Below, one piece after another: positions 6,602 through 57,880 of a stretch of 64,000 bases of DNA; positions within the stretch are counted from its first letter, which is position 1, and each line of letters begins with the position of its first letter. This stretch comes from Pseudomonas phage pPa_SNUABM_DT01. The notes under the pieces are model-generated. The model did not search any database, was not told the DNA's origin, and saw only the letters and a program-made list of their open reading frames with translations. The stretch lies in sequence record MW735835.1, one strand, 5' to 3'. Both the position numbers and the translations under genes were made by a program.

Positions 6602-7109
6602 ACGCCTCGACTGGATGAACTGGGAAATGGGCGGGACTTCCTCGTCCTATACAGCGTACGGTCATCATCCGCTGCACACGGTTTCCATCCCCCACAGTCT
6701 CATGGAACTCTACAAGCCTGAGGAAGGCTGGTGGATAGTCCGGTGGCCCACGGGAATCGTGACCTTCCGCAGTGATGAATCCTTCAAGCGGGACTTCGAA
6801 CCAGGCAATGGAACGCTGTACTACACCTGGCTGGAGGGCATTTTCCAACGGGGATGGGAACATCCTGAAGGGCAGCGCCGTCACGCTGAGGAGCGGGCAG
6901 CTGAGAAAGAGCGCCAGCGCAAGCTGCACGAAGAATGGATGGCCAGACGTGCCACTGAGCCCAAGGTCCGTGATCTGGGGAACGGCTGCATTGTCAGGCG
7001 AGTTGACGTGGGATTGGTCGAGATGCCTAAAGGTATTCAAGTCCAACCCCTGTCTGAGCATGTTTCCATCCTTCCGCTGCTCAAGGCACTGACCAGGCCT
7101 AACTTCTAG
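6525..7109 (+). CDS. hypothetical protein
   Basis: Strong Shine-Dalgarno element AAGGAAAG 4 nt upstream of the ATG. 194 aa, Trp-rich, no motif. Confidence 0.55.
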   Translation: MKINELDLPRPLGCTKVHAFQIKTLERLDWMNWEMGGTSSSYTAYGHHPLHTVSIPHSLMELYKPEEGWWIVRWPTGIVTFRSDESFKRDFEPGNGTLYYTWLEGIFQRGWEHPEGQRRHAEERAAEKERQRKLHEEWMARRATEPKVRDLGNGCIVRRVDVGLVEMPKGIQVQPLSEHVSILPLLKALTRPNF

Positions 7110-7115
7110 TGAGGC

Positions 7116-7150
7116 AGCATAGAGAGCGGCCAGTGGCCGCTCTCTATGCC
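7116..7150. terminator. bidirectional rho-independent terminator (CATAGAG...CTCTATGCC family)
   Basis: Stem GCATAGAGAGCGGCC / GGCCGCTCTCTATGC lies between convergent genes ending at 7109 (+) and 7151 (-). Confidence 0.7.
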
Positions 7151-22919: not shown

Positions 22920-22963
22920 TAGTTGGCAAGCCAATGCTCACCTGTAGTGTAAGGGAGTCACCG

Positions 22964-25189
22964 ATGACAAGTAACCAGTCTGTCCAGGAGCAACTGGCTC
23001 AGTACTATGCTCAGTCCGCCCGTAATCCGGTGGAACTGCATCCTGAGTTGATGTCGCTCTATGGGCTCAACCCGTTTATCCGGCACATCTCCGCATCCCG
23101 TGCGGCTATGTTCACCGGCAACCTGGCACAAATGGTGGTAATCAAGGAGCCCACCAGGAAGCACATCATGACCCTGATGGAGCGTCCGTTTGCCGATACG
23201 ACGTTCTCGATTGAATTCGAGGACAACGTGCAGATCCTTAAAATCATCCCGCGCTTCGGCCACACCGCCGGTGCCAACCGTATCCGGCATTCGCCGCAGA
23301 CGGCCATCATTTACGAGAACCAGCGCACCAACGAGATCGGGGTGACGATGCTGACGGACTACCACGTCACGCACCAGCACTTCGGCACCGAGTTCAAGCG
23401 CAATCGTGACGTGATGGACCTGATGCGCGAGAAGGCGTACTTCAAGGCTGGTACCAAGCTGGCCCACAGTCCGCTGATTGACCAGTATGGCAACTACATG
23501 TACGGCCGCGAGACGAACGTGCTCATGGCGTCTGACGTGGCAGGGACTGAGGACGGTGTGAAGGCCCGTCGGGGATACCTGGAGAAGTTGGCCCCCACAG
23601 GATTTGAGACTCGTGTCTTCGAATTCGGGCGTGAGTTCTTCCCGACCAACCAATCCACAGTCCCCGGCATCTATAAGGTCATGCCTGACCTGGGCGAGAA
23701 GGTAAGCAGCACTGGCTTGCTGGTAGCGCTGCGCCGGTATGACCCGATCAGTGGCGTGGCCAACATGACCACCGAGGCGCTGCAACAGCCGGACTACATC
23801 TTCGACCGGAAGCGGTTCGTCCAACACATCGATGCTGAAGTGGTGGACATCAAGGTCGAACGCAACACCTCGATCAACATCCCGCCGTTGCCGGTGGGCA
23901 TGGAAGATCAGCTGCTCAAGTACTACAACGCCGACACCGAGTTCTACAAGAAGATCGTGGACTTCTGGTGGGAAAAGCGTAAAGAAGCGCGCAAGCGTGG
24001 GTACGAAGAGCTGCCGATGGAGCCGGAGTTCAACCATCTGGTGTTCGAAGCCATCGGCCGGGTTGGTCCTGACCATCTGCGGTCGGACCATGGGTTCAAC
24101 CGGAAGGTCGATGAAGCCGTCTCGGGCGGTAAAGTCGACAAGGTCTACCGCGGCGTGAAGCTGGACGCATGGCGCGTGGAGATCACCTTCAAGTACCTGT
24201 CCATCCCGAACAAGGGCTATAAGATCACCGACATCAACGGCAACAAGTCCGTCGTGGTCGAGGTGGTCGATGACGAAGACATGCCGGTCGACGAGAACGG
24301 AATCGTCGCTGACATCGTCGTAGACCCGAACTCCCGTTGGAACCGGGTAACACCAGCATCCCCGATCGAAATGGTGATCTCGGGTGCCGGGCGTGACCTG
24401 GGCAAGCGCCTCCAGCATGCCTTCGGGTTCCCCATGAACGATCAGTTGAAGGAGGATGAAGTAAACGACGTCGTCTATTCTCCCGAGAACCGTGATCTCG
24501 TGGAGTATTGGTTCGACGAGCTGATGGAGTTCTACAAGGTAGTCGCTCCGTACCAGTACGACGACCTCTCGGACCCCGAGTACCACCGCTTCAACCCGGA
24601 GTACAAGCACACGCAAGTGGCCGCAGTCATGCTGGATCACCTGCTGGGCATCGACCTCACCATGCCGACCGATAACCCGGTCCACATGCCGGATGTCATC
24701 CGCGCCATTCAGGAGCGCTGGCCTCCGTTCATCACCCCTGTCCGCTTCCGCGGCCGGGACGGCAAGATGAAGGTGTCCCGTGAGCCGATGCTGATTGCTC
24801 CGTCCTACTACATCAACCTGGAGAAGACCGCAGAAGACTCGTGGATGGCTGCATCGTCCGCGAAGTGCAACGTGTTCGGTACCACTGCGCGTCTGTCCAA
24901 CAACGACAAGTACGACTCTCCCGGTCGTCAGTCGTCCATTCGTGTCGGTGAGTCCGAGATTCGCTCGGAGTCCGCTGTCTGTGGTGGTGAAGCCACTGCC
25001 GATCAGAAGGACGCCTCCAACAACCCGATTGCGCACAAGTTCGTGCTCCGTCGGCTGTTGACCCACCCGACCCCGACCAACATCGAGGAGGTTCTCGATC
25101 GGAAGGTGGTTCCGGTAGGCGGGCATAGACCGTTGGCCTACATGCGCAACATGTTCGAATGCTCGGGCAAACAACTCACCAACGAATAA
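22964..25189 (+). CDS. multisubunit RNA polymerase beta subunit, C-terminal fragment
   Basis: [23 protein letters not shown] matches E. coli beta [43 protein letters not shown] matches [20 protein letters not shown]. A degenerate GDK-RHGNKG region is present ([16 protein letters not shown]). Start at ATG 22964 (AAGGGAG, 6-nt spacer). Confidence 0.9.
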   Translation: [741 protein letters not shown]

Positions 25190-25201: not shown

Positions 25202-27304
25202 ATGCGTCGAATCAAAGCACGTGAGTTCATGAACCGCGACGTAATCGCGGAGTGGCCGCTGCCCGATGAGAAGTTGATTATCGAGTTCGACGACGGGGTT
25301 CTTGAGACCACCACTCGCCGTACCACGACGAGCTGGTTTTGCTGGGAGCTGCACCGGCAGTTCCCCCGCACCCCGCTGAACATCAACCACCACATCGGCA
25401 ATGGGTTCCCCAGCGCTGACATGATCCCCAAGACGCTGTCCAACATCGTCCGGGATCTGCACTACACGTACTTCACGCCAGGCAGCGAACTGGCAAACCA
25501 CGATCTGTGCTACGACCGGGAGGATGTGTGGCGCGTGGTGAAGGACGTCGGTAACGAGATCTACAACGTCCTGTCGGTCAATCTGGAAGAGTGGCATGTC
25601 CACATCAACGCCTTCCACCTGCTCGAGCTGTACGACTACCCGCCGTTGGTGGCGATTCGTGCGACGCTCAAGGATAACCAGCTCTCCATCTCCAACGCGA
25701 TGGACCGGACCTCTGAAGTCCTGATGAAGGACCCAGCGATCCTGCACAACCCCATCGTACGGGGGCTGCGTTCCAAGCAGATCAAGATGGGTCAGTTCTT
25801 GCAGATCATCCTCTGCTTGGGCTACCGGACCGACCTGGACCAGGTAATCTTCCGCAAGGCCATCACGGTCGGCTTCTTCGAGGGCCTGACCAAGATGCAC
25901 GACATCATGATCGAGTCGTGCTCGGCCAAGAAAGCGCTCATGTTCACCAAGAAGCCGCTGCGGATCGTCGAGTACTTCAACCGGAAGATGCAGCTGTCCA
26001 CCACCGTGGTCGACAAGCTCATCTGGAACGACTGTGGTTCGGACGTGTACGCCGAGATCCCGGTCGACACCCACCTCTGGTCCCACCTCGACGGCAAGTT
26101 CTACCTCGATGAGTCCACCCGCAAGTTGACTGCTATCCATGCGGACAACAAAGAGCAGCAGAAAGCGCTCAAGGGTAAGACCATCAAGATGCGCTCGGCC
26201 ATGTTCTGCCGTTACCGTGGTCGTGGTGAAGTTTGCCACGTCTGCTTCGGCGAGCTGGCTTGGTCCATCCCGCGGGAAACCAGCCTGGGTCACGTCTGTG
26301 CTACCGAACTCTGCCGGGAAGGTTCCCAGCGGACGCTGTCTGTGAAACACTTGGACGGCTCGTCGGTAGTGGAGGAAATCGTCATTGCGGAGGAACACCT
26401 GCCGTACATTGACGTCTGTGCCTCGGACCCAGCAGTGAACGACAACGGGGATGTGGAGGTGATGTCTGCCGCCACCGAAGAACTCCTGGGTGAAGCTGTC
26501 CCGGAAACCGCCCGTGAATCCTCGCTGCTGAAGTTCAACCCACGGCTGAAGAAGATGAAGCCGGTCATGATCCTGCCTGCCGCCCCGGACAAGAACACCG
26601 AGAACGCAGCGGGCCTGGCCGCCATCAACAGCGACACCGTCATCGAGCGCTTGAACATCCACCGGTTCACTTCGTTCCGCGAAGTTCAGATCCGTGTGAC
26701 CAACCTGCGCGAAGAAACCACCGATGCGTTCATCCCGGTCAGCCAGGGTGCACGGTTGGGTTCGCTGTCCCGCGTCATGCTGCACTACATCAAGGACCAC
26801 GGCTACACCGTTGACGAAGATGGCAACTATTGCATCGACCTCAGCGAGTGGGACTTCGGTGCTCCGGCGTTCTCCCTGCCGCGCCGCCATGCCAGTACGC
26901 TGGACTTCATGGCTGCGGTAGAGGCATTCATCCGCTCCCCGGCGAAGAAGTCGGAACGCAACGGCTTCAACGGCCGCATGCTGACCAGCTACGACGACCC
27001 GGTAGCAGCATTGCTGGACTTCAGTGATCTGGTGAACTCGCAACTGCGGGTATCCATCAGCCACCTCGAAGTGATCCTGCTGTCGCTGTCCCGTCCGGCG
27101 GATGACCCTGACGACTACCGTCTGCCGGACTTTGACCGGCCGATGAAGTTCGAAGAGCACCGGACCCTGATGCAGTATCGTTCGGCTGGCCAGCAACTGG
27201 CCTACGAGCGGCAGCCTGACATGATCGAAGATCCGGACAGCTACCTGATCACCAAGCGTCCGGCGGGTCTCCTGGACCCGTTCGTGTTCCCGGAAGTTAT
27301 CTGA
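25202..27304 (+). CDS. multisubunit RNA polymerase beta-prime subunit, C-terminal fragment (paralog 1)
   Basis: MRSAMFCRYRGRGEVCHVCFGELAW...SLGHVCATELCREGSQRTLSVKHLDGSS aligns to the beta-prime region [23 protein letters not shown]...[26 protein letters not shown] (Zn-binding Cys cluster plus trigger-loop region). Tightly coupled to the beta-C gene (TAAGCGGAGTAAGCAATG). Confidence 0.8.
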   Translation: MRRIKAREFMNRDVIAEWPLPDEKLIIEFDDGVLETTTRRTTTSWFCWELHRQFPRTPLNINHHIGNGFPSADMIPKTLSNIVRDLHYTYFTPGSELANHDLCYDREDVWRVVKDVGNEIYNVLSVNLEEWHVHINAFHLLELYDYPPLVAIRATLKDNQLSISNAMDRTSEVLMKDPAILHNPIVRGLRSKQIKMGQFLQIILCLGYRTDLDQVIFRKAITVGFFEGLTKMHDIMIESCSAKKALMFTKKPLRIVEYFNRKMQLSTTVVDKLIWNDCGSDVYAEIPVDTHLWSHLDGKFYLDESTRKLTAIHADNKEQQKALKGKTIKMRSAMFCRYRGRGEVCHVCFGELAWSIPRETSLGHVCATELCREGSQRTLSVKHLDGSSVVEEIVIAEEHLPYIDVCASDPAVNDNGDVEVMSAATEELLGEAVPETARESSLLKFNPRLKKMKPVMILPAAPDKNTENAAGLAAINSDTVIERLNIHRFTSFREVQIRVTNLREETTDAFIPVSQGARLGSLSRVMLHYIKDHGYTVDEDGNYCIDLSEWDFGAPAFSLPRRHASTLDFMAAVEAFIRSPAKKSERNGFNGRMLTSYDDPVAALLDFSDLVNSQLRVSISHLEVILLSLSRPADDPDDYRLPDFDRPMKFEEHRTLMQYRSAGQQLAYERQPDMIEDPDSYLITKRPAGLLDPFVFPEVI

Positions 27305-27750: not shown

Positions 27751-29304
27751 ATGAAAATTGATGTCTATAGCCACGCACTCAAGGTTACTGGCGTAACCAC
27801 AGAGCGTGACCTTCAGGCGATGTTGCAGTTCTGCCGACCCCTAATCGAGATGGGCTACGAGAAGAGGGGGAAGCGGTTTATCCCCAAGGGACTGCGAACA
27901 TTCGCCGCTGCTACGAAGAACCGACAGGAGTTCAGTTTCCACCGAAACCAGCTCCAGCAACTGAAAAGACACCTGTTCCAGAACTGCGGTTACGCAGAAC
28001 ACCTGGTCCCCATCACGCACCACCTTGTCGAAGACATCAAAGTCGAGAAAGTCAAGTTCGACGTCCGTCACATGCACCCGCCTCGTGAACGACAAGTGGG
28101 CATTATTCAGTACGTGCTTGATGATCAAGACCCCAAGTGGGACCCGATCATCAAGATGGTCACCTTGCAGACCGGCGGGGGTAAAACCTTCGTTGCGCAA
28201 TTCTGCATGAATGAGTTGGGTGTCCGCACCGTCATTCATTTCAAAGGTGGCTACGTGGAGCGCTGGAAGAACGACTTGGAGGAAACCTTCAAGTTCAAGC
28301 GCGGGGAGTTCCTGATCGTTCGGGGCTCCAAGGACCTGATCGCTCTCCAGCAGATGGCACTGGATGGCGACATCAAGGCCCAGGTGATCATCATCACCTC
28401 CGCCACCATGCGTGACTACATCAAGAACTACGAGGAATCCAACGGCAACAGCAAGATCTACCCGATCAAGCCGATTGACTTCTACCCGAAACTGGGTGTG
28501 GGTTTCCGTACCACTGACGAACTGCACCAAGAGTTCCACAACAACTACCGCATCGACCTGTACACGCACATCCCAAAAGCGCTCGGTCTGTCTGCCACGA
28601 TGACCAGCTCGGATGCGTTCAAGAACCGGATGTACGACATCGGCTACCCTGTCATGCAGCGTCACGACGGCGGTGGGTACAACGTCTACATCGGTGTGAC
28701 AGCTATCCTCTACCACATGGACCCCGAGGTCCGTATCCGCTACATGGGTGGTCAGGGTTACTCGCACACCACGTTCGAAGAATCCATCATGCGGCACAAG
28801 GGCCTGCTGAAGAACTATCTGCGCATGATTGACCACGCGATTTACAATCGCTACGTCTCGGTGCGTGAGGAAGGTCAGAAGGCACTGGTGTTCTTCGCCC
28901 GGGTGGACCTGTGCACGCTCATGGTGGAACGTCTCAAGAAGATGTACCCTGAGCTGAACGTCGTGCGGTACGTGGGTTCTGAAGGCGACTCGTACGAAGA
29001 ACTGCTGGAAGCGGATATCGGTGTCACCACCATCGGCTCTGGCGGTACGGCGATTGACATCAAGAACCTGCGGTGCTCGTTCATGACTACCGCGATTGAC
29101 TCCCGTCAATCCAACGAACAAGTGCTTGGTCGGACCCGTCCCCTCAAGGACTGGCCTGATATCACGCCTGAGTTCATTTACTTCGGCTGCCTCGAGATCG
29201 AGCAGCACTGTAAGTACCATCGCAACAAGATCGAGTTCTTCAAGGGCAAGGTCCTGTCGCACATGGAGGTCATGTCCAAGTACGTGCTCCAGCTGCAAGG
29301 TTGA
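27751..29304 (+). CDS. superfamily 2 helicase
   Basis: Walker A LQTGGGKTFVA (motif I). Motif VI-like QVLGRTRP near the C-terminus. LVFFARVD and TTIGSGGTAIDI match helicase motifs IV/V. AGGGA Shine-Dalgarno element. Confidence 0.85.
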   Translation: MKIDVYSHALKVTGVTTERDLQAMLQFCRPLIEMGYEKRGKRFIPKGLRTFAAATKNRQEFSFHRNQLQQLKRHLFQNCGYAEHLVPITHHLVEDIKVEKVKFDVRHMHPPRERQVGIIQYVLDDQDPKWDPIIKMVTLQTGGGKTFVAQFCMNELGVRTVIHFKGGYVERWKNDLEETFKFKRGEFLIVRGSKDLIALQQMALDGDIKAQVIIITSATMRDYIKNYEESNGNSKIYPIKPIDFYPKLGVGFRTTDELHQEFHNNYRIDLYTHIPKALGLSATMTSSDAFKNRMYDIGYPVMQRHDGGGYNVYIGVTAILYHMDPEVRIRYMGGQGYSHTTFEESIMRHKGLLKNYLRMIDHAIYNRYVSVREEGQKALVFFARVDLCTLMVERLKKMYPELNVVRYVGSEGDSYEELLEADIGVTTIGSGGTAIDIKNLRCSFMTTAIDSRQSNEQVLGRTRPLKDWPDITPEFIYFGCLEIEQHCKYHRNKIEFFKGKVLSHMEVMSKYVLQLQG

Positions 29305-29305
29305 G

Positions 29306-29335
29306 TGGGAGGGCTTCGGCCCTCCTCTTATGCCG
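29306..29335 (+). terminator. rho-independent terminator
   Basis: GGGAGGGC-TTCG-GCCCTCC followed by TCTTATGCCG. Confidence 0.7.
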
Positions 29336-29395
29336 CGTGTCAATGAAAACCAACTCTACCCATTATCTGAATACCTCATCGCTAAGGAGTTAGCC

Positions 29396-30430
29396 GTGCT
29401 CGAGAAACATGAAAACGAAGTCTACCATCAGATGATGATCCTTGCTCAGGGTAGCGGTCAACATCACGCCCTGAGCGCTTACCCTCATCTGCAAGCTCTG
29501 TTCTTCGAGCAGGCTTCCAACATGCAGAACCTGACCAACATGTTCTTCCAGCGACATCGCGAAGAACTGTTCTACGGGTTGACTCCCTGGGCTATGCTCT
29601 ACAAGTTGCAGACGGGTCGTGATATCAAGTTGCCTACCCCAGCCATCGTGAAATATTTGGCCGATTCCAATCGGGTTGAGGTGTCACCGATCCCCATCAA
29701 GGAAATTGCCAGGTATGCCAAGAGCTATCGCCTGGACAAACTCCCTGCATCCATGCGTGAAAGTGAGCGCTGGGGACATTCGTTCAAGAAAGATACTGTC
29801 ACGGTGGACATCTCGCTGGCTGACCAGAGCGCCACCATTAGCTGGGATAACAACGACATGTACCTTAACATGCCCGACTTCGGCGCTAGTCGTGCAGAGG
29901 TGCATTGTCCGCTGTTCCATGCACCATACACCATCCATCTCGAACACAGCTTCTTGAACTCGGTCCTGTATGACCCTCTGGTCGACATGTTGATCGGCGA
30001 CGAGGCTATCACCCTGGACTTCGAATCGAAGTACCTACTCATGGACCATTACTTCGGCACCCGCCAAGAGCCGAAGGAACTGCCTACCGAACACCCGTTC
30101 GTCCAACTGCGCCATCTGCTCAACACCAGCTCCTATGGTAAAGCAGGTAAGAGCACCATCCGCCTGAAGGTGAACAACGACTACTCTATCGCGATCAGCG
30201 CTACCCGCGATTGGAACTTCCACGAGAGCCTGGTCGTCAAGATCGATTCCGCCTATCGCCATTACGAGAAAGACGGCGAGATGAAGGAAGACAGCATCTG
30301 GAACTCCACGTGGGAGAAGAACCCGTTGTTCGTCCGCGACATCATCGCCAACCTGCCTCGCATGATCGATGAAGCGTTGGCTGAACACGAACGGCAACTG
30401 GCCGGCACTGACGGTTACGTGGCGAAATAA
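29396..30430 (+). CDS. hypothetical protein (probable GTG start)
   Basis: The frame is open from 29096, but the upstream part overlaps the helicase gene and the terminator. GTG at 29396 has AAGGAG 6 nt upstream. 344 aa, no motif. Confidence 0.55.
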   Translation: MLEKHENEVYHQMMILAQGSGQHHALSAYPHLQALFFEQASNMQNLTNMFFQRHREELFYGLTPWAMLYKLQTGRDIKLPTPAIVKYLADSNRVEVSPIPIKEIARYAKSYRLDKLPASMRESERWGHSFKKDTVTVDISLADQSATISWDNNDMYLNMPDFGASRAEVHCPLFHAPYTIHLEHSFLNSVLYDPLVDMLIGDEAITLDFESKYLLMDHYFGTRQEPKELPTEHPFVQLRHLLNTSSYGKAGKSTIRLKVNNDYSIAISATRDWNFHESLVVKIDSAYRHYEKDGEMKEDSIWNSTWEKNPLFVRDIIANLPRMIDEALAEHERQLAGTDGYVAK

Positions 30431-31246: not shown

Positions 31247-31313
31247 GTAGGGACGGGAGAGCGATGCTCTCCCGTATGTCCGTCTCACCGTTCTATTCAA
31301 TGTGGAGGTTCGT

Positions 31314-31547
31314 ATGAACATGCTGTACAAAAACATCAATGCGAACTTCCGCATTGTACTGGACTTCGGCATGGAGTTTGACCATGCCAAGATCATCGTT
31401 GCGAGGTTGGCCGGTCGGGTCATCCTCAACATGATCCATGATGGCCCTGATCACGTGAAGATCGAGTTCACGGAGAATGGGTTGAAGAACCGTAAGCGTT
31501 TCACCAAGGTCATGGCCAAAGGTAACGCTCTCGATCTGGCGGTTTGA
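31314..31547 (+). CDS. hypothetical small protein
   Basis: ATG 31314 with GGAGG 5 nt upstream. 77 aa. Confidence 0.45.
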   Translation: MNMLYKNINANFRIVLDFGMEFDHAKIIVARLAGRVILNMIHDGPDHVKIEFTENGLKNRKRFTKVMAKGNALDLAV

Positions 31548-31561
31548 CGAACATGCAGAAT

Positions 31562-31600
31562 AGAGGAGAGCCCGAAGGCTCTCCTCTTTCTTTTTTCTTT
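31562..31600. terminator. bidirectional rho-independent terminator
   Basis: AGAGGAGAGCCC-GAA-GGCTCTCCTCT followed by TTCTTTTTTCTTTTG, between a (+) stop at 31547 and a (-) stop at 31604. Confidence 0.8.
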
Positions 31601-31603
31601 TGC

Positions 31604-34510
31604 TTACTTGCCGTAGTAAGCGAGCAGGTTCTGACGAGCCTTCTCGTTGGCCAGATCTTTCAGGCTGGCGTTCCAGTCGATGGTGCGCAGGGCGCGCTCA
31701 CGCTTGGCCGGATCAGCAGTGGAGATCAGGATGGAGGTCAGGCTGTTGAAGTTGCGCAGGCCCTTCGGAGTGATGGTCATCTGACCCACGCCGGTGTAGA
31801 CCTTCTTGGGCGACATGATGCCGTTGCTGTTCTTGAAGAAGAACGTCAACAGCTCGGTCCAACCCTGGACGAAGTCTTCGCCATCCAGACGCAGCACACG
31901 GTTGATGCAGCGATCCAGCAGGGTCTGGTAAGGCGCAGCTTTCACCACGTCATCACCAGCTTCCTTACGGCCGTCTTCGTAGGCTTTCAGGTCTTCGGTC
32001 ACGAATTTCACGGTCATTGTCATCGACTCCTCGGTAATGTCGCTGATACGTTTCTTGATCGACTCATCGTCGAGCAGAGTGGAGACCCCGAACAACGCCG
32101 CCGCACGACGGATCATTGCTTGAGGGGTTGTGTTGATACCTGGCAGGATCTGTCCACGTGCCCAGGCCTTGATTTCACGGCGAGTCCAGTGGTCGAGCTT
32201 ACGTGCGTCCCGGTAACGGTCACGGACGTAGATGCCCGACGGAGTGGACGGAACCACAGTGCCGTGCAGTACAAAGGATTTGGCATCCTCGTGGTACCAG
32301 AACAGCGGAACCCGGAAGCGCAGGTAGACTTCTTCCCAGAGGACGTCTTCCGACGCCTTCTCGGTTGCCGGAATCTCGCCTTTGAGCCATGCCTTGACCT
32401 CAGCGTCACGCCATTGGCCGGCCACCTTCAACGGGCGGGTCGGATCATTGAGGTAAACGCCGCTTTCCAACGCCTTGGGCTTGGTGCTGGTCTTGAGGTA
32501 CTCGATCACTTCGTTATCGGCCCAGTGAGCAGGGCTGACACCGAACTGGACGTCGATCAGTCGACGAACACGTGCTTGAGCTGCCGGATCAGTGAGGGCA
32601 AACTTCGCCACCACTTGTTCATTGGCCAGGGCCTTCAGTTCGTTCCACGACCAGTTCGACGGATCATCGCAGTTACGCAGACGATCTTCGACGTAGGTGC
32701 CGTCCGGCAGGCGCTTGGGCTCACTTCCATTACGGAAATACGCCAGGATGTGCTGGTTGGTCCAGTGCGAGTTGATCTGGTAGATCGAACGCACTTGGCT
32801 GTAGAGGAACTCGCGGTTGATGCTCTTATCGACTTCGATCTCGCCTTTGAGCCATGCCAGCAGCTGGCGTTCAGAACATGGCTTGCCTTCGACGATGGGT
32901 GGGACCGGATTGTTGGGGAGAACACCGGACACGGCAAACTCCTTGACTTCGTTGTCGTCCAACCGATCAGGAACCCTGAACCGAGCACGGATGTTCAGCA
33001 GGATTACATTGGCCGGTACGGTGGTGATGATTTTGCCAGCTGCCCAAGCTTTCAGCTCTTCTTCCGACCAATCACCTGGATGTTTACTGTCCCGCACACT
33101 GTCCTCGACCAGAACCCCCTCATCAAAGCCCGCAGGAAGCGTTTTAGCGCTTACAAACGCCTTGACTGCACCATCGGTCCAGTTCTTGACGAACGCGCCA
33201 CAGGCGATGCGTAGAGCGGCTGTGAGGGTAGCGACCGTGGTGTTCATGCCAGGAGCAATCTCACCACGAGCCCAACCTACCAACTCGACCATGGTCCACT
33301 TGCTGGCGCTGATGAATTTCCGGCGAGCATCATCGAGGATTACTTCTTCCGGAGTTTCCGCAGCCATTGCTGCGCGCAGCTCAGAACCATCAGGAACCAG
33401 TTCGGTCCAGAGGGTAGGAGTTTTCTCTTCAGGAGGGTCCACAGGGTCGACAGGATCTGTCTCTCCCGGCTCTTCCTCGTCTGTTCCTTCACCCTCTTCA
33501 GGTTCTGGTTCAGTAGGTTCAGGTTCGGTCTCTGGTTCTGGCTCATCGACCGGGTCCTCCGGTTCTGGTTCTGGCGGGGTGGGCTTGACACCCGTTTCGA
33601 TGAAGGTGAGGGCCTGGTCTTCAGTCCACCACTCTTCCATCTCATCCATGTGCCGGCTGATCAGGGTCAGCTTGGCTTTGGCGTCAGCATCATTGCGCAC
33701 CAGGCTGAGCAACTGAGCATCGGTGTACTCAGTGTACGCATGCTCAACCTCAGGGATCTTCTGATCGACCACCCAGACCTTGAGGTCCTCGCGCTTCCAG
33801 TACCATTCGCCGCCGAACACTTCCAGCGCCACAGGCAGCAGGTTGAGGTCAGATTCGAGTTCACCGGCCACCCAGGCGGTCAGTTCAGCTTCTGACCAAT
33901 CCGCAGCCAGCTTCGAGGGCCGGTTACGGTCATTGATCAGAACACCGTTGCTGGTTTCCGCAGGCTTGATGCCTTTCTGGATGTACGCGCAGTAGTCTTC
34001 CCAGGTGATTCCCATGGGCAGATCAAACCGCTGGCAGGCTTCGTCGAGGATGTAGTACTGGCTACGCTCGAGGTCACCGAAGAAGCCCGCACCGAGGTCG
34101 GACAGCTCACTGTCGTTCCAGTACTTGGCTTCCTTGACCCAGCGGTTCGGGTCATTGATGTAATAACCACCCGGGCTCTTGGCCGGTTTGCGGTCAAACA
34201 TCAGCCAGTCGTAGAGGTCTTCCTCGCCCCAATTGACAGCATCGCTGTCGGTCAGGGCGGCGCGACCCCGCAGGGCCTTGTAGAAGTCCTCCCCACCACT
34301 GACGTGGTTGGTGAACAGCTCGTTGTTGGCCAGAGCGAAGAGTTCTGCCAGGCTCCAGTCCCCGAGTTCCTTTGCTTCCCGTTCGATGTCGGAGACCCAG
34401 AGGTCATTCGACGTCTTCGGTGGCTCCTGACCCAAGGACTCGTACACGGCAATCTCTTGCTCGCTCCAAGCCTTGGGGTAGACGCCCCTGTATTTATCGC
34501 TCATGCGCAC
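31604..34510 (-). CDS. 968-aa tandem-repeat protein (about ten ~85-aa repeats plus a Pro/Glu-rich linker), unknown function
   Basis: Recurrent unit W[ST]xxE[LI]xAWxxGEI ... RF[RG]VP ... G[TV]xPxxxxGxY[VL]xDxxR ... W. Examples are WSEAELTAWVAGELESD, WTMVELVGWARGEIAPGMNTT, WSEEELKAWAAGKIITT, WRDAEVKAWLKGEIPATEK and WTRREIKAWARGQILPGINTT. The linker is PTPPEPEPEDPVDEPEPETEPEPTEPEPEEGEGTDEEEPGETDPVDPVDPPEE. Last gene of a three-gene minus-strand operon. Confidence 0.85.
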   Translation of the reverse strand: MRMSDKYRGVYPKAWSEQEIAVYESLGQEPPKTSNDLWVSDIEREAKELGDWSLAELFALANNELFTNHVSGGEDFYKALRGRAALTDSDAVNWGEEDLYDWLMFDRKPAKSPGGYYINDPNRWVKEAKYWNDSELSDLGAGFFGDLERSQYYILDEACQRFDLPMGITWEDYCAYIQKGIKPAETSNGVLINDRNRPSKLAADWSEAELTAWVAGELESDLNLLPVALEVFGGEWYWKREDLKVWVVDQKIPEVEHAYTEYTDAQLLSLVRNDADAKAKLTLISRHMDEMEEWWTEDQALTFIETGVKPTPPEPEPEDPVDEPEPETEPEPTEPEPEEGEGTDEEEPGETDPVDPVDPPEEKTPTLWTELVPDGSELRAAMAAETPEEVILDDARRKFISASKWTMVELVGWARGEIAPGMNTTVATLTAALRIACGAFVKNWTDGAVKAFVSAKTLPAGFDEGVLVEDSVRDSKHPGDWSEEELKAWAAGKIITTVPANVILLNIRARFRVPDRLDDNEVKEFAVSGVLPNNPVPPIVEGKPCSERQLLAWLKGEIEVDKSINREFLYSQVRSIYQINSHWTNQHILAYFRNGSEPKRLPDGTYVEDRLRNCDDPSNWSWNELKALANEQVVAKFALTDPAAQARVRRLIDVQFGVSPAHWADNEVIEYLKTSTKPKALESGVYLNDPTRPLKVAGQWRDAEVKAWLKGEIPATEKASEDVLWEEVYLRFRVPLFWYHEDAKSFVLHGTVVPSTPSGIYVRDRYRDARKLDHWTRREIKAWARGQILPGINTTPQAMIRRAAALFGVSTLLDDESIKKRISDITEESMTMTVKFVTEDLKAYEDGRKEAGDDVVKAAPYQTLLDRCINRVLRLDGEDFVQGWTELLTFFFKNSNGIMSPKKVYTGVGQMTITPKGLRNFNSLTSILISTADPAKRERALRTIDWNASLKDLANEKARQNLLAYYGK
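33440..33600 (-). repeat. low-complexity GGTTCTGG/GGTTCAGG repeats encoding the Pro/Glu-rich linker
   Basis: Reiterated short units on the plus strand (CAGGTTCTGGTTCAGTAGGTTCAGGTTCGG...). Confidence 0.6.
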
Positions 34511-34514
34511 ACCC

Positions 34515-35891
34515 TTAGGTAAAGGCTTCCAGAATGTTCAGTTTGGCCGTCTTCAGTTCTTTGGCGTGTGCCGAGGCCATCATGATGTCCATGAACTTGG
34601 ACGCCACAGAGGTGTTCTCAGCGCCGATGGCGTGCGGGATGGCCGCCAGGGCTTCACCTACGCACTTAGCGCAGAAGTCGGTAGCACCGGTCTTGCAGAA
34701 GATCGGCGAACGGGTAAGGACGGTCTTACCTTCGAGGCTGATGGCACGTTGCTCATCGAGCAGTACCGGACCTTTCGGGGTGATTTCCCAAAGGCCAGCG
34801 TAGTACGAACCTTGACCTTTCTCGATGGTCCGTTCCAGCCCCAGCGTAGCGCCGCAGTCGTCTTCGGAGATCGCGACGTTCTGGAACACCCGCATGAAGA
34901 ACTTCACCGCTTCCCCGCCGAGTGCAGTCAGTGCACCCCGGTAGAAGGAACCGGCACGAGTGGAGTTGAACATCGCCACCAGCTTGTCGGTGTCCCAGCC
35001 CTCGGTCAGCGAGTTGACCACGAGTTCGGCGCTACCGCCCTCGTTGAAGCCCGCTTCAGGACCGTGGATGAGGAACATACGCTTACGTGCCGTGCCCCAG
35101 GTCTTGTTCGACAGGAGGAAGCCTTCAGACGGGTCGTCTTTCAGCCAAGCCTTGTCCATGTCGATCAGTTCGTTCTGGATCTTCGAGACCACAACCGGGT
35201 CGTGCAGACGCTCTTGGTTCTCTTCGAGCAGCTTGGCACGACGACCGTAGACCGCCGGGTCAGTCATCAGCGACTTGGGCGTCAGGGTCGGCACGAACAA
35301 CTGGGTGAAACCAGCCAGTGCGCCCATGCAACGACCAAAGCGCATGTACATCTTCACCGGGATCTGGTCAGGCCGGGGTTCGACACCACTGACCTCAGGA
35401 TCGTCGCACAGCTTGGAGGCGATGATGCGTTCGATCTTGCTGATCTTCACCGGACCGACCTGGTAAGGGATACGGTCTTCGAAGGGTTCGACCAGCGCGA
35501 TGTAGTTGAACAGCAGATCGCCGTAGGTGGAGTCCACTTCCTCATGGAGGTTGGCGATCATGTCCGGGGTGACCTTGAGGTCATCGGCCGGGTAGAACAG
35601 CGGGGTCATCGGGACGGTATCCTCGATGGGTACCCATGCTTCTGGGTCTTCCACCGGGATGTGGCGCACCTGAGGGACACCATGATGATCACCGAGGATC
35701 ACCGTGCCTTCCGGCTCATGTTTCTCACCGGGCAGGTAGACTTCGGTGACATCGGCCTTGTAGCGGATGTCGTAAGCCTGAGGGACGATGCCGTTCTCAG
35801 GACGGACGACTGAGAAGGCACTGATGACCCAGTCCTTACGGCGGTAGCACCCTGCTCGCAGGGCGGCTACGTAGAGGTCTTGCTTCTTCAC
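34515..35891 (-). CDS. multisubunit RNA polymerase beta-prime subunit, C-terminal fragment (paralog 2)
   Basis: [20 protein letters not shown] matches the beta-prime region [71 protein letters not shown] matches [25 protein letters not shown]...[26 protein letters not shown]. The N-terminus ([13 protein letters not shown]) resembles SPANGEPIIVPSQDV just after the catalytic loop, so this is the natural partner of the 10925 N-fragment. Confidence 0.85.
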   Translation of the reverse strand: [458 protein letters not shown]

Positions 35892-36721
35892 GGCGTATCC
35901 TCCGGAAGGGTAGAGAGCACGGCGGTGACGCGCTTGTAGGACTTCTGCACGACGAACGGATCATCATGCATCTCTTCTACGAAGAACATCACTTCGTCAC
36001 GCAGTGCATCGCGAGGGGTCTTGGCCAGGATGGCAATGGACAGCAATTGGTCAGCAAGATCCTCAGGACCGAGATCAGCCAATTGAGGCCGGGCGCTCTT
36101 GACCAGTTCTTCTGCCGAGGAACCGATCTCCACACCTGCGTTCAGGGATTCCATGCCGACGGTCAACTTCTCACCGACGATCTTCTGGTGAGCGTTCAGC
36201 AGACGGGTAGCGTTCTGTACGCCGTCTTCACCCTGCACGGTGTAACCCAGGTTACGTTCGACCCGTTCCTTGATGGCAAGGATCACGTCGCCGGAACACC
36301 CCAGCACGTACTCCATCAGTTCTTCAGGTTCGACCGCCATGTGGATGGCCAGTACGTTGCAGAGGGTATCGACCCCGTCTTCCCCGGCATTGACCGCGGT
36401 GAGGAATTCGTAGTCGTTGTCATTCGGGTTGAACAGCAAGCACTCGAGGATGCTTGCCAGCGGATCGAGCTTCAGGATGTCGAGGTCCAGTTCGATCTGC
36501 ATCTGCGCCAGCAAGGCACGGACCTGGTCCATGACGATGGTGCGGGCTTCGTCAACGAGGGTGATACTGTCGTGCTCGTTGGCGTTCATGCGCAGGATCA
36601 GGATACGGTCTTTGTAACCGGTAGCCTTGTACTTCTCCAGCGCTTGAGTCAGGGCCTCGAAACCATCGTAGACGGACGGGTCAACCTTATCCTGAAGGAT
36701 ATCGGAAAGTTCTTGCAACAT
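35888..36721 (-). CDS. hypothetical protein (first gene of the minus-strand RNAP-containing operon)
   Basis: ATG with AAGGAA Shine-Dalgarno element. 277 aa. Its stop overlaps the start of the beta-prime C gene. It could be an accessory RNAP subunit, but there is no motif support. Confidence 0.75.
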   Translation of the reverse strand: MLQELSDILQDKVDPSVYDGFEALTQALEKYKATGYKDRILILRMNANEHDSITLVDEARTIVMDQVRALLAQMQIELDLDILKLDPLASILECLLFNPNDNDYEFLTAVNAGEDGVDTLCNVLAIHMAVEPEELMEYVLGCSGDVILAIKERVERNLGYTVQGEDGVQNATRLLNAHQKIVGEKLTVGMESLNAGVEIGSSAEELVKSARPQLADLGPEDLADQLLSIAILAKTPRDALRDEVMFFVEEMHDDPFVVQKSYKRVTAVLSTLPEDTP

Positions 36722-36817
36722 GGCGGTTTCCTTAATAAAAAAAGTTTACCCGACCTAATATGAGTAAAGTACAAATAATTGGCCAGGCCGTAAACAAATT
36801 AACTGGGGTACAAATGA
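36722..36817. promoter_or_regulatory. AT-rich divergent intergenic region
   Basis: A 96-bp A/T-rich spacer (TTAATAAAAAAAGTTTACC...GTAAAGTACAAATAATTGG) between divergent gene starts at 36721 (-) and 36818 (+). Confidence 0.35.
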
Positions 36818-37216
36818 ATGAACACCACCGTCCAGACGCCTGCTCAGGCGTTGAGTGAGCTGCGCCAACAAGCGCTCAGACTCCTGTACAAATTCGCTGA
36901 ATCCACCCGTGATATCGCCCGCTTCCGTCAGTGGACCGATACCAACCGTCAAGCCCGTTGCAACCAACTGGTGCAGTGCATCAAGCGTGATCTCAACGAG
37001 TTCCATGGTCGGGTGCAAGCGCTCGACAACAAACACAAGCGCGAGATCTCCAGCAACGTACTGGCTCACCCGCATCACCCGGTCATGCTGGCCGCTGGCG
37101 GTGAGTGGTACTCCCTGATCGACGACATCACCAGTGTCGTCACCCCTAACTCGGCTGAACTTGCTGGCCTGCTGGCCCAAGAAGGTGCAGCCTCTCAACA
37201 AGCCGCTGTTGTATAA
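36818..37216 (+). CDS. hypothetical protein
   Basis: 132 aa. Of two adjacent ATGs, only the second (36818) gives a long frame. Confidence 0.6.
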   Translation: MNTTVQTPAQALSELRQQALRLLYKFAESTRDIARFRQWTDTNRQARCNQLVQCIKRDLNEFHGRVQALDNKHKREISSNVLAHPHHPVMLAAGGEWYSLIDDITSVVTPNSAELAGLLAQEGAASQQAAVV

Positions 37217-37225
37217 GGTACTACC

Positions 37226-38830
37226 ATGAGCGACAATCAAAACGGCCAAGGTGGCATGGACGAGATCGATGGCGATCCGGCTGAGAACATGATCCAGGAC
37301 CCTGACGCGCCTCAAGGTGCTGATGCCTTTGCCGCTGCCGCGCAACAAGCCGCTGCTGCTGGTCCCGAGACTCCGGCTGAGAAACAGCCTGAGCCGAAAG
37401 TGGAAATCGAAGGTCTGTGGGATGAGGTCGACCAACCCAACCCGCACGTAACCCACAACGCCTCCATGTTCCATCGTCAGGCTCTGGCACCGACTCAGGT
37501 CGGCCTGGCAGCCCTGCACGTGGGCATGCGTGAGCTGGACATGATCATGGAAGCCCGTGGTCTGAACAACCTCACCGAAGAGAAGGCCAAGTCCCTCTCG
37601 AACGCTGACCGTCGCATGGTCAACCTAGCTCGTAACCTGACCACCATCTACCAAGACATCTACTTCGACGATGTCGACAAGGCCGGCAACTGGCACGCCA
37701 CGGTCATGCACAACGAGACCGCCCTCGGCGCTGGTAAGGTGAAAGCCGCCAACATCAAGGACCCGGTACTCGCCATTCGTGCGACCTTCGGCCAGGGTTC
37801 TCAGGTTCAGATCCCGCTGTGGTCCACTGGCCTGTGGGTGACCTTCCGTGCGCCGACCATCCAGGAACTGCTGGACTTCGAACAGAAGTGCCGCCTGGAG
37901 AAGATGAACCTCGGTCGTTCTTCCAACGGCATGGTCTTCTCGGCCGTCGAGGTGTACACCGTCGAGACTTACATGCGCTTCGCTCTGGAGCACGTGATCT
38001 CGGTGAACTACGCCTTCGAGACCGCTGACCACGTCGAAGAACTGCTGACCGTGATCCGTTCGCGCGATTACCAGCAGGTCGTGTGGGGCATGGTCTGTGC
38101 CATGTATCCGGATGGCTACCCGCTGCGTCAGCCGTGCGTGGCCAACCCCGATACCTGCGACCACCTGGACGAGGTTCTGCTGAACTTCGCCCGCATGGGC
38201 TTCGTGGACCGCGACAAGATCAGCGACAAGCAAGCGTTGATGATGGCCTCGCGTTCCACCAAGCGTGATCGCAAGTGGCTGGAAGAATACCAGGCCGAGT
38301 TCCCGTTCTTCGAGAAGCGCATCAACGTCGGCAATGGCCTGACTGCGGTACTGCGTTGCTCCTCGCTGGCCGAACAGATCGATGCAGGCCACCTGTGGGT
38401 GGACGGTATCTCCAAGGCAACCAACGAAGCCTTCGGTGCCCGTCTGTCCGAGATGGACCGCATCCGTCACATCATGCGTTCGGGCGCATTGACCAACCTG
38501 CGTCAGTACGGCCACTGGGTCGCCCAGTTCGAACACAAGACCGACCCGGAAGCTGCGCCGATCATTCACGCCGACTTCGAGAACAAGGACCGCATCCTCG
38601 AGTTGCTGTCTGAAGACCCGCAAGTCAGCGAGATGCTGACCAACGAGATCGTCGAGTGGATCAAGAAGTCGACCGTGTCCTACACTGCGCTGGCCAAGAC
38701 ACCGTGCCCGGCCTGCCAGAAGGAACCGGAAGACAAGACTCATCCGCACCTCATCCCGATCGACATCGGTTACGTTTTTTTCACCCTAGCCGCACTGAAG
38801 ATCAGCCAAGTAGAAGGCGCGGCGGTGTAA
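37226..38830 (+). CDS. hypothetical abundant protein with acidic disordered N-terminus
   Basis: AAGG Shine-Dalgarno element and strong codon bias. The N-terminal ~70 aa are D/E/P/A/Q-rich. 534 aa, probably structural. Confidence 0.85.
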   Translation: MSDNQNGQGGMDEIDGDPAENMIQDPDAPQGADAFAAAAQQAAAAGPETPAEKQPEPKVEIEGLWDEVDQPNPHVTHNASMFHRQALAPTQVGLAALHVGMRELDMIMEARGLNNLTEEKAKSLSNADRRMVNLARNLTTIYQDIYFDDVDKAGNWHATVMHNETALGAGKVKAANIKDPVLAIRATFGQGSQVQIPLWSTGLWVTFRAPTIQELLDFEQKCRLEKMNLGRSSNGMVFSAVEVYTVETYMRFALEHVISVNYAFETADHVEELLTVIRSRDYQQVVWGMVCAMYPDGYPLRQPCVANPDTCDHLDEVLLNFARMGFVDRDKISDKQALMMASRSTKRDRKWLEEYQAEFPFFEKRINVGNGLTAVLRCSSLAEQIDAGHLWVDGISKATNEAFGARLSEMDRIRHIMRSGALTNLRQYGHWVAQFEHKTDPEAAPIIHADFENKDRILELLSEDPQVSEMLTNEIVEWIKKSTVSYTALAKTPCPACQKEPEDKTHPHLIPIDIGYVFFTLAALKISQVEGAAV

Positions 38831-45143: not shown

Positions 45144-45616
45144 AGAGCCCTTTCTTTTACCTAGGCAAGCTCACTGGGTATATCCATGGCTGGTTCACGG
45201 GCTGGATGGAGGGTCGGCGTGTTGCTGCCCTGTGGCGTCAATACGGGGCACTGGAGGCCATCCCCACTCGTCTCCTGCGTAACACCGGTCCATCGGCACC
45301 GATGATGGTGCGGCGCCAACAGGTGAAGATCGCCACGTTCCATCTGCTCAACGCCCTGGACATGACCAATGGCCCGCAGATCCCCAACACAATCGCGATG
45401 GTGGAAGCCTGGCTGAGCTTCAACTCTCAAGGCGAAGACATCATCACCATGGAGAACATCTCACGTTCAAACGGGATCGTCCACTCGCTGATTGACCTCG
45501 CTGTCCGTAAAGACGGTCTGGACAAGACCCAGTTACAAGAAGCCTTCAAGGCCATGAACAAGGTGTGGGTCTGGGAGCAGTACCGTACCAACAGATTCTT
45601 GTCCGTGGGCGATTGA
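45140..45616 (+). CDS. hypothetical protein
   Basis: ATGA start/stop overlap with the upstream gene. 158 aa. Confidence 0.6.
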   Translation: MKSPFFYLGKLTGYIHGWFTGWMEGRRVAALWRQYGALEAIPTRLLRNTGPSAPMMVRRQQVKIATFHLLNALDMTNGPQIPNTIAMVEAWLSFNSQGEDIITMENISRSNGIVHSLIDLAVRKDGLDKTQLQEAFKAMNKVWVWEQYRTNRFLSVGD

Positions 45617-45621
45617 CATAA

Positions 45622-45658
45622 ACGGGAGGGGTGCACCCCTCCCTTTCTTTTTGTTTTG
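45622..45658 (+). terminator. rho-independent terminator
   Basis: GGGAGGGGTG-CA-CCCCTCCC followed by TTTCTTTTTGTTTTG. Confidence 0.8.
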
Positions 45659-45677
45659 ATTCGAATTATTTTCGACA

Positions 45678-45687
45678 ATACATGATA
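45678..45687 (+). promoter_or_regulatory. candidate promoter motif variant ATACATGATA, followed by GTGAATATCC
   Basis: It shares both halves (ATACAT.AT. and GTGAATATC) with the element at 8837-8860. It lies 34 nt upstream of the 45721 start. Confidence 0.25.
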
Positions 45688-45720
45688 GCGGTGAATATCC
45701 CCACCAATGTCTAAGGAGAC

Positions 45721-45978
45721 ATGATGAACCGTATCGAAAACGATGTAATGGGTACTCACGTCCTGCTCAACCTGGTCAAAGAGATCATGGACTGTGCCAT
45801 CAACATGAAGGACGAAACCACAGCCGAACGTATCCAGATGGTCCGCATCTGGTTCAACCGCGCCAAGCCGTCCGTTCAGCAGGATGTTGAAATGTTCCTG
45901 CGCCACATCCTGGCTGGGGAAGAAGAACACCAGACTCGTCTGGTTCGTTCTGCTATCGACATCATCATCACGAAATAA
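45721..45978 (+). CDS. hypothetical small protein
   Basis: CTAAGGAGAC Shine-Dalgarno element. 85 aa. Confidence 0.55.
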   Translation: MMNRIENDVMGTHVLLNLVKEIMDCAINMKDETTAERIQMVRIWFNRAKPSVQQDVEMFLRHILAGEEEHQTRLVRSAIDIIITK

Positions 45979-45987
45979 GGGATCGCC

Positions 45988-46710
45988 ATGCACAACCTGA
46001 ATGAGTTCACTGAAGACCAGTACGGCAACTTCATCATCGAGCACGATGGTGTAGAGGTCAACTACGGTCGTCTGCGCCTGATCGGGACCGAGTCGGGCAT
46101 GATGTTTGTGACCGATCTTCGTAACTACGGCGACATGGTCGAGATCTTCATGGAGGATTCGCTCTCCATGGAGAAATTCGATGGGCGGGCTAACTTCCAC
46201 CTTACCATCGAGATCGGTGAGCGAGGGGAAAGCAACTTTGTACGTTTGTGGCCGGTGCTCAATGAGGATGTCGATCGCCTCTGTCGAGTACTGACCGTGG
46301 AAACAGGTAACATCGTCGAGGTGTCGCACGAAGGCCATGTCTTGGCGGTTTATGACCGCCATGAGCTGAAGGAACAGTCTCACAACCTGGACTACTTCGA
46401 CAGCGAAGTCGCTCCCGATGCCGTCGAGGCCACTTCCTGGCCTCGACTGGAAATGGACTTCGACCTCGCGGCGAAGATCCTCAGTGAGTCCATCCGCGAC
46501 GAACTGCGTGATCATGCATTCGGCGATAAGGAAATCTACTGGCGAGATCAACACGGCCACCAAGTTGCCACGGGTTACTACGGTTCCTCTGGCGTCGAAG
46601 TGGGGATGTGCGGGTTCGACATCAACTTCTCTGAAGAAGAAGCTCGTCAGCTGGTTGGGCTGGGGACTCTGGGTGAAGTCCAGCGAAACGACTCCCAGGG
46701 GGACGAGTAA
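45988..46710 (+). CDS. hypothetical protein
   Basis: AAGGGA Shine-Dalgarno element. 240 aa, acidic. Confidence 0.7.
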   Translation: MHNLNEFTEDQYGNFIIEHDGVEVNYGRLRLIGTESGMMFVTDLRNYGDMVEIFMEDSLSMEKFDGRANFHLTIEIGERGESNFVRLWPVLNEDVDRLCRVLTVETGNIVEVSHEGHVLAVYDRHELKEQSHNLDYFDSEVAPDAVEATSWPRLEMDFDLAAKILSESIRDELRDHAFGDKEIYWRDQHGHQVATGYYGSSGVEVGMCGFDINFSEEEARQLVGLGTLGEVQRNDSQGDE

Positions 46711-46833
46711 GAAATAACCAGGTCTGCTAGATGTATGATAGCAGGCCTGGTCTTGCAATAAATCGTATGAGGGTGTAAACTCTCTGCCACACAAACAAGA
46801 AACCACCACTAACCAGACGCCAAGGAGTGTCTA

Positions 46834-50490: not shown

Positions 50491-50496
50491 TGGCAC

Positions 50497-50619
50497 TTCC
50501 TGAAACTGAGTGGAGTATATTGAAGGTGGTTATACAAATGGATATCGGGCCTTTGTAAGAATTTACGCCAATCTCTATGATTGGGTACTTACGCCAAGCC
50601 ACTTTTAAGAGACTCTGTC
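50497..50619. promoter_or_regulatory. divergent intergenic region with promoter-like element TATACAAATG-GATATCGG
   Basis: Lies between the divergent exonuclease (-) and peptidase (+) genes. The GATATCGG half matches GAATATCGG at 8852. Confidence 0.3.
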
Positions 50620-57849: not shown

Positions 57850-57880
57850 TTCTACCACGCCTTAATGAAGGGAAATGTTC

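Follow-up and report, generated by a model that had tools for sequence, protein, structure and literature searches.

What is a protein of 968 amino acids (aa), made largely of tandem repeats, doing next to the gene for a subunit of RNA polymerase (RNAP)? The question is raised by a minus-strand operon at positions 31604-36721 of a 64,000-nucleotide stretch of Pseudomonas phage pPa_SNUABM_DT01 (MW735835.1), here called the window, which encodes a 277-aa protein, a 458-aa C-terminal fragment of the RNAP beta-prime subunit and the repeat protein. The original prediction, made from the letters alone, took the repeat protein for a nucleic-acid- or RNAP-associated scaffold. The answer reached here is a different one. 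The operon is the conserved gp79-gp80-gp81 virion-protein block, a gene module of the ordinary phiKZ-like kind. What is unusual in it is how far one member of a capsid-decorator family, a family recognised only in 2026, has expanded. We consider it probable, though well short of certain, that the 968-aa product decorates the capsid surface with an unusually long repeat array.

The evidence for this reading begins at the C-terminal end of the protein, in a domain that we call the anchor. Direct phmmer searches of the three proteins against the PDB gave sub-threshold matches only, and a profile was therefore needed to establish the link. Built from 24 sequences of the C-terminal domain, this profile matches the "Capsid Decorator" gp77 of phage Goslar (11fg) with an E-value of 1e-7 over ~110 residues (gp77 98-207), that is, over nearly the whole of its modelled globular domain, and chain 7 of entry 36za, identical in sequence, with an E-value of 4e-8. 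In 36za this chain is named "Inner-peripheral baseplate spoke gp220" although it is identical to residues ~66-212 of Goslar gp77, an apparent labelling mismatch. The baseplate location that goes with the label was rejected, since the aligned sequence is that of Goslar gp77 and 60 copies fit a capsid decorator. One protein cluster, phrog_18957, is common to the window protein (E 6e-12 at aa 855-967), phiKZ gp81, Psa21 gp88, Goslar gp77 and LucasX gp90; the window protein also matches phrog_18270 in five stretches (E 6e-60), and BLASTP finds both phiKZ gp81 and Psa21 gp88. The gene for Goslar gp77 comes right after those for gp79 and gp78 on the same strand, divergent from gp80 and gp81, and the arrangement in the window is identical. 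Cryo-electron microscopy (cryo-EM) of Goslar shows gp77 on the outside of the capsid, sitting between neighbouring protomers of the major capsid protein (MCP), with 60 copies modelled, further copies at low occupancy or contour, and the protein present on empty capsids too; mass spectrometry gives ~290-680 copies of gp77 per virion, against 14-33 for gp78 (10.64898/2026.04.21.720040). By homology to Goslar gp77, the window protein would also be located on the outer capsid. Elsewhere in the window, neither the anchor nor the repeat was found again.

The anchor is preceded by a genuine repeat array. Iteration of a hidden Markov model (HMM) delimits nine full units (aa 46-123, 125-198, 199-267, 401-474, 475-545, 546-612, 614-692, 695-767 and 770-842) and two partial ones (aa 10-44 and 264-314), the unit at 546-612 scoring 25 bits although it lies outside the HMM seed. 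When each full unit is left out in turn, a model built on the remaining eight gives it 19-43 bits, while 200 shuffles of the same unit never exceed 12 bits. The prediction of ~10 tandem repeats of ~85 aa thus stands as to their existence but not their length, the mean unit being 73 aa. Because the units share only ~20-30 % pairwise identity and no long tandem repeat exists at the DNA level, where a PEPEPE hexanucleotide run is all that was detected, the repeat is ancient. As had also been noticed, an extreme Pro/Glu linker interrupts the array; the protein as a whole has an isoelectric point (pI) of 4.76 and a net charge of -53. Thirty-six metagenomic homologues of 930-1270 aa keep the same gene order and the same unit positions, down to ~33 % identity. 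An AlphaFold2 (AF2) model of units 7-9 (pLDDT, the predicted local distance difference test, 85) predicts three helices and a small beta hairpin in each unit. The first helix, W-S-x-x-E-L-x-A-W, is short and the second long; the third has the pattern W-x-D-x-E-V-x-x-Y-L, and the hairpin G-V-Y-V-N-D-P-x-R.

That the repeat belongs to no recognised family proved correct, in that no curated family matches: Pfam gives nothing at E <= 0.1 for any of the three proteins, and Foldseek finds no match in the PDB at E <= 1e-3 for the three-unit AF2 model. The top match of the repeat profile among PDB sequences, the lambda integrase core-binding domain (E 0.039), was judged to be due to chance. A likeness to the fungal Ish1 motif emerges all the same. 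In an exhaustive search of 1.84 billion sequences, the repeat profile retrieves a fungal Ish1-repeat protein at E 4.8e-6; this lead (P0153) is a fungal-type secreted or endoplasmic reticulum protein of 696 aa with eight Ish1 motifs. In hhalign comparisons, the two halves of the unit pair with a probability of 87 % (P 4e-6), and the first half pairs with the Ish1 motif at 80 % (P 1.5e-5). Ish1 is also the only Pfam family matched by more than one unit (3 of 41 single units), the best single-unit E-value of 0.037 falling short of the Pfam gathering threshold for Ish1 (PF10281) or its HeH-SAP clan. From these alignments, the unit appears to consist of two diverged Ish1/HeH-like half motifs of ~37 aa in tandem. 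The Ish1 motif has no known molecular function, and its SAP and HeH/LEM relatives are DNA binders (PMC12222759).

How widespread is this architecture? The repeat-unit profile finds 127 proteins among the 1.84 billion representatives, and the anchor lies at the C-terminal end in 113 of the 126 repeat-bearing representatives, the remainder being fragments or dubious matches; the combination of repeats and anchor is nearly exclusive. Copy number runs from 1 to ~17 and is typically 2-3. phiKZ gp81 and Psa21 gp88, both matched by the repeat HMM, are the 2-3-unit form, and Goslar gp77 and LucasX gp90 the anchor-only form. The window protein, in which repeats are followed by a C-terminal anchor as elsewhere in the gp81 family, is the expanded form, with an added (EP)n linker. 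Three sets of proteins described as "hypothetical" (Goslar gp77, phiKZ gp81 and Psa21 gp88, and a metagenomic clade of 930-1440 aa) are in this way united in one anchor-defined family, with lengths of ~150 to >1400 residues set by the copy number of a single helical module. LUCX_90 of LucasX (L001 10545-11009) is annotated as a "permease of the drug/metabolite transporter superfamily"; its matches to phrog_18957 (E 1.8e-14) and to the anchor make it a probable anchor-only capsid decorator that was mis-annotated. SPN3US gp243, an essential head protein encoded beside a virion RNAP gene, was considered as an equivalent and rejected: it corresponds to phiKZ gp177.

Whether the family gene always neighbours an RNAP beta-prime C-terminal gene in related phages had been named as a check. 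Its linkage to that gene of the virion RNAP (vRNAP) is conserved, though loosely. In phiKZ, Psa21, Goslar, KpHz_2 and the metagenomic clade the two genes adjoin on the same strand; LucasX and RTH11 keep them side by side with the family gene inverted, and in RP12 ~3.3 kb with five inserted genes separates them. In this Ralstonia phage (L010) the inserts at 4961-7757 include an RNA ligase and a membrane protein, and the family gene is ORF264, of 258 aa; in LucasX, LUCX_90 and the vRNAP beta-prime-C gene are convergent. The junction between the two genes suggests a hotspot of gene insertion. The linkage looks like inherited gene order within a conserved block of virion genes and not like obligate co-expression.

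We propose the following arrangement. The last ~110-140 residues would form a globular anchor, seated on the outer capsid between two MCP subunits as in Goslar gp77, and would hold the 968-aa protein on the capsid hexamers. The N-terminal ~830 residues would project outward as a flexible, strongly acidic fibre consisting, in order from the anchor, of six ~73-aa helical units, then an (EP)n spacer of ~80 residues, and finally about four further units. Most likely, the array would act as a reach or avidity module for weak binding to surfaces or polymers, and/or would stabilise the capsid; variation in copy number would fit a module of this kind, for which Hoc-type display proteins offer a parallel. 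Should the array have a binding partner, it would be a candidate for what determines host encounter or the handling of capsids inside the cell. phiKZ gp81 and Psa21 gp88 carry the label "virion structural protein", and the GenBank annotation of phiKZ gp81 places it in virions; the family as a whole suggests that many phiKZ-like phages, phiKZ included, carry an unmodelled flexible surface protein.

Several points weigh against this arrangement. Identity between the anchor and Goslar gp77 is low (~20-25 %). phiKZ gp81 is unmodelled in both cryo-EM studies of the phiKZ capsid or virion, where the outer proteins are gp35 and gp244, so that an outer-capsid location is demonstrated for one distant, repeat-less homologue only; the outer-capsid domain of phiKZ gp35 itself has no detectable sequence similarity to the anchor profile. 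The repeats have no known binding target, and their Ish1/HeH likeness could indicate nucleic-acid binding. Lastly, phiKZ orf81 carries zero disruptive transposon insertions over 1422 bp, against an expected density of about one per 42 bp (PMC12676376, Table S2). Such a lack would be unusual for a dispensable decorator; it could mean that the protein is essential, or that insertions have polar consequences for orf82, the DNA-polymerase gene lying downstream. Polar effects are a general caveat raised by the authors of the transposon sequencing (TnSeq) study, in which orf35, a gene for outer decoration, does tolerate insertions (4 sites, 2394 reads) (PMC12676376). Around the phiKZ vRNAP beta-prime-C gene, orf77, orf79 and orf81 are without disruptive insertions while orf78 tolerates six (PMC12676376, Table S2); the uncharacterised genes flanking it may be fitness-conferring. 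The apparent essentiality of orf81 makes a role of the array in host encounter or capsid handling testable in an existing genetic system.

Could the protein be mainly a capsid cement, its anchor stabilising a very large shell while the repeats drift as a functionally neutral appendage? We regard this as unlikely, yet it survives best among the alternatives. Goslar gp77 and LucasX gp90 are little more than anchors, a site between two MCP protomers suits a clamp, and the apparent essentiality in phiKZ would parallel that of gpD of phage lambda. Against it, the units are conserved position by position in homologues down to ~33-45 % identity, with their Trp, Asp and Arg columns kept, which argues for selection on the array; and expansion to 9-17 units in several lineages would be costly if neutral.

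Two further readings, each rather improbable in our judgement, would also keep the protein on the capsid. In one, its role would be mainly intracellular, in an essential step of the nucleus-forming cycle (capsid trafficking, docking at the chimallin shell for packaging, or bouquet assembly) and not in extracellular adhesion. The family does not extend beyond phiKZ-like phages, any contact with the shell has to be made by the outside of the capsid, and phiKZ orf81 appears essential or fitness-conferring by TnSeq whereas orf35 tolerates insertions. The essentiality signal may nonetheless be the polar effect on orf82, and a repeat number ranging from zero (Goslar, LucasX) to ~17 is hard to square with a conserved docking interface. 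In the other, the capsid-anchored array of ~20 Ish1/HeH-like half motifs would be no passive decoration but an essential platform for interactions, peculiar to nucleus-forming phages, which would tether capsids to the chimallin shell, PhuZ or the bouquet, or bind a polyanion or nucleic acid. This would explain both the insertion intolerance of orf81 and the persistence of the gene beside the vRNAP and gp79 block.

The scaffold originally proposed, packaged and acting with the vRNAP, is the least probable of all and we find it unsupported: adjacency and co-orientation with the vRNAP beta-prime-C gene in the window, phiKZ, Psa21, Goslar and the metagenomic relatives, the resemblance of the first half-unit to the SAP-like Ish1/HeH motif and the absence of transposon insertions in orf81, as in vRNAP genes, speak for it, but the anchor is homologous to an outer-capsid protein, the copy numbers of Goslar gp77 and gp78 do not match, the protein is strongly acidic (pI 4.2-4.5 in the distal units), the linkage is loose, and no such protein figures in the published vRNAP compositions (phiKZ gp80/149/178/180, 10.1101/2024.03.24.586471; five Goslar subunits).

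Returning to the decorator and its genomic setting, the three minus-strand open reading frames (ORFs) were correctly delimited, and their order and families match phiKZ gp79-gp80-gp81 and Goslar gp79-gp78-gp77. The same order of a ~277-aa, a ~450-aa and a decorator-family gene, with divergent genes of ~135 and ~530 aa, recurs in phiKZ, Psa21 and Goslar, and likewise in three metagenomic contigs of up to 276 kb. More broadly, the window is collinear with phiKZ gp50-gp81 from 3901 to 38830, through DNA polymerase, chimallin, gp55, gp68-gp70, a fused gp71/73, gp74, helicase, gp77 and gp79-81. A search of phage records gave no near-identical DNA, but judged by its proteins the phage can be placed firmly as a divergent, phiKZ-like (Chimalliviridae-type), nucleus-forming jumbo phage. 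A gp82-type DNA polymerase fragment (phrog_3011) lies at 48760-50496 on the minus strand, away from the gp81-like gene, whereas the two are adjacent in phiKZ. Five sizeable ORFs have no PHROG match at E <= 1e-5, namely 29096-30430(+), 45427-46809(-), 50605-51921(-), 57842-59143(-) and 7109-8248(+); they may be clade-specific genes or wrong frames. The coordinates of the features are collected in Table 1.

Table 1. Features of the operon, its flanks and related genes in the window.
Feature	Position	Strand	Remarks
Chimallin homologue	8925-10832		phrog_4795
Non-virion RNAP (nvRNAP) beta-prime-N subunit, phiKZ gp55 orthologue	10925-12388		31 % identity, E 8e-68
nvRNAP beta C-terminal part, single 751-aa ORF	22934-25189	+	aligns with phiKZ gp71 (aa 26-437) and gp73 (aa 450-748)
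nvRNAP beta-prime C-terminal subunit, phiKZ gp74 orthologue	25202-27304		E 1e-76
gp75-like helicase	within window		phiKZ order
Intrinsic terminator, perfect G+C-rich hairpin and T-run	31562..31597	+	between convergent genes; serves the + strand gene 31302-31547
Capsid-decorator-family protein, 968 aa (probably 966)	31604..34510	-	position and sequence homologue of phiKZ gp81, Psa21 gp88, Goslar gp77
C-terminal anchor domain, aa ~826-968, core 855-967	31607..32035	-	homologous to the globular capsid-binding domain of Goslar gp77
Repeat units 4-9 (aa 401-842)	31985..33310	-	
Pro/Glu-rich hyperacidic linker, aa 318-400, net charge -26	33311..33559	-	resembles (EP)n rod-type spacer
N-terminal half-unit (aa 10-44) and repeat units 1-3 (aa 46-267)	33710..34483	-	acidic, pI 4.2-4.5
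vRNAP beta-prime C-terminal subunit, 458 aa	34515..35891	-	orthologue of phiKZ gp80 / Goslar gp78
Acidic all-alpha 277-aa protein, phiKZ gp79 / Goslar gp79 family (phrog_5038)	35888..36721	-	virion-associated
AT-rich divergent intergenic region	36722..36817	.	between the gp79-like gene and the gp78/gp77-like genes
gp78-like gene	36818-37216	+	
gp77-like gene, 534-aa product	37226-38830	+	26 % identical to phiKZ gp77, E 8e-39

The RNAP genes of the window can now be assigned. The 458-aa protein matches phrog_2962 at E 7e-129 across residues 1-457, and the gp74-type phrog_3015 only weakly and locally (E 8e-7). Full-length BLASTP alignments are obtained with Goslar gp78 (32 %, 3e-69), phiKZ gp80 (30 %, 2e-60) and LucasX gp91 (38 %, 1e-108), and tblastn matches 308 jumbo-phage records. 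Its translation contains both of the conserved beta-prime C-terminal motifs that had been pointed out, SEDDCGATLG and RSPIFCKTGATDFCAKCVGE; the direct match to bacterial beta-prime residues 774-902 is weak (E 0.34). It is thus a second, paralogous beta-prime C-terminal fragment, as claimed, of the gp80 type and distinct from the gp74-type ORF. By this orthology, it would belong to the enzyme that is packaged in the virion, injected with the DNA and used to transcribe the early genes, the phiKZ form of which is composed of gp80/149/178/180 (10.1101/2024.03.24.586471).

Its supposed partner, in contrast, has to be replaced. The N-terminal fragment at 10925-12388, at whose end the 458-aa protein seemed to continue, follows directly on the chimallin gene, like gp55 in phiKZ, and by orthology it pairs with the gp74-like product of 25202-27304. 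The apparent continuity arises because both C-terminal fragments begin at about the same point of beta-prime, and it cannot discriminate between partners. No gp180-like N-terminal fragment, the expected vRNAP partner of the 458-aa protein, was found by tblastn within the window. The presence of two RNAP sets in this phage was rightly anticipated, but it is the vRNAP/nvRNAP arrangement already known for phiKZ-like phages and not a new one. The bookkeeping is thereby settled, with the vRNAP beta-prime-C in the operon and both nvRNAP beta-prime halves elsewhere in the window. The split between phiKZ gp71 and gp73, with the intervening gp72, is absent from the 751-aa ORF.

The 277-aa protein is grouped by phrog_5038 with phiKZ gp79 (annotated as a structural head protein), Goslar gp79, Psa21 gp86 and LucasX gp92. 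It is homologous over its full length, and its gene is positioned upstream of the vRNAP beta-prime-C gene and coupled to it; in the relatives compared, the gp79-family gene is always directly upstream. The Goslar virion contains 10-24 copies of gp79, near the 14-33 of gp78 (10.64898/2026.04.21.720040), and phiKZ orf79 has zero transposon insertions (PMC12676376, Table S2). From gene coupling and stoichiometry, a vRNAP-linked role in assembly or packaging is a reasonable guess for this protein.

At the nucleotide level, the stop of the 277-aa gene overlaps the start of the 458-aa gene in GTGA, and the two are translationally coupled. The 968-aa gene starts 4-10 nt past the 458-aa stop, and its translation probably begins in fact at the ATG at 34504, for a product of 966 aa; an AAGGGTG Shine-Dalgarno-like element lies upstream of this codon, and a 99 % identical metagenomic protein (P0001) also has 966 aa. 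GC content is 57.9 % in the operon and 56.6 % in the window, and falls to 36.5 % in the divergent intergenic region. The AT-rich part of the "AT-rich divergent promoter region" predicted there is therefore right, but no sigma-70-type site was found in 36722-36817. At the other end, a "bidirectional terminator" was an overstatement. The hairpin at 31562-31587 (an 11 bp stem with 7 G-C pairs) is followed by TTCTTTTTTC on the + strand only, where the terminator is clear, while the minus-strand transcript would carry the hairpin without a U-tract. An Rfam scan of the region gave no match.

How does this locus compare with what is already known? Its 458-aa product is a full-length orthologue of phiKZ gp80 and Goslar gp78 (30-32 %) with the same neighbours, divergent but otherwise with nothing notable. 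The repeat recalls Ish1 (PF10281), known from fungal nuclear-envelope and stress proteins: both have the pattern W-[ST]-D-x-[ED]-L-[KR]-x-W-L-x-x-x-G-[IV] and a second helix with an aromatic end, and the tandem ~37-aa copies of Ish1 are found again in the halves of the phage unit. In the phage, however, alternate copies have a beta hairpin in place of the second helix, creating a ~73-aa super-unit, and the repeat sits in the context of a phage capsid. Goslar gp77 has the homologous C-terminal domain of ~110 aa and the same gene position as the window protein, but it is a 212-aa protein whose N-terminus is disordered, rich in Ala, Glu, Lys and Pro, and without repeats; the window protein has ~840 extra residues, made of its nine full and two partial units and the (EP)n linker. 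phiKZ gp81 and Psa21 gp88 (phrog_18270) share the gene position, a variable N-terminus, W-x-x-x-E-L repeats and the C-terminal anchor, although with 473 and 570 aa they hold two to three units and no (EP)n linker. A similar outline is seen in T4 Hoc and other capsid display proteins of the Ig-like or BACON type, in which a small capsid-binding domain carries a string of repeated modules that project from the hexamers, in copy numbers that vary between phages. The window protein resembles them in this outline, but its units are acidic and, in the AF2 model, alpha-helical, and no match to Pfam Ig, BACON or FN3 families is found in it. Hoc, moreover, is dispensable, whereas phiKZ gp81, the homologue of the window protein, may not be.

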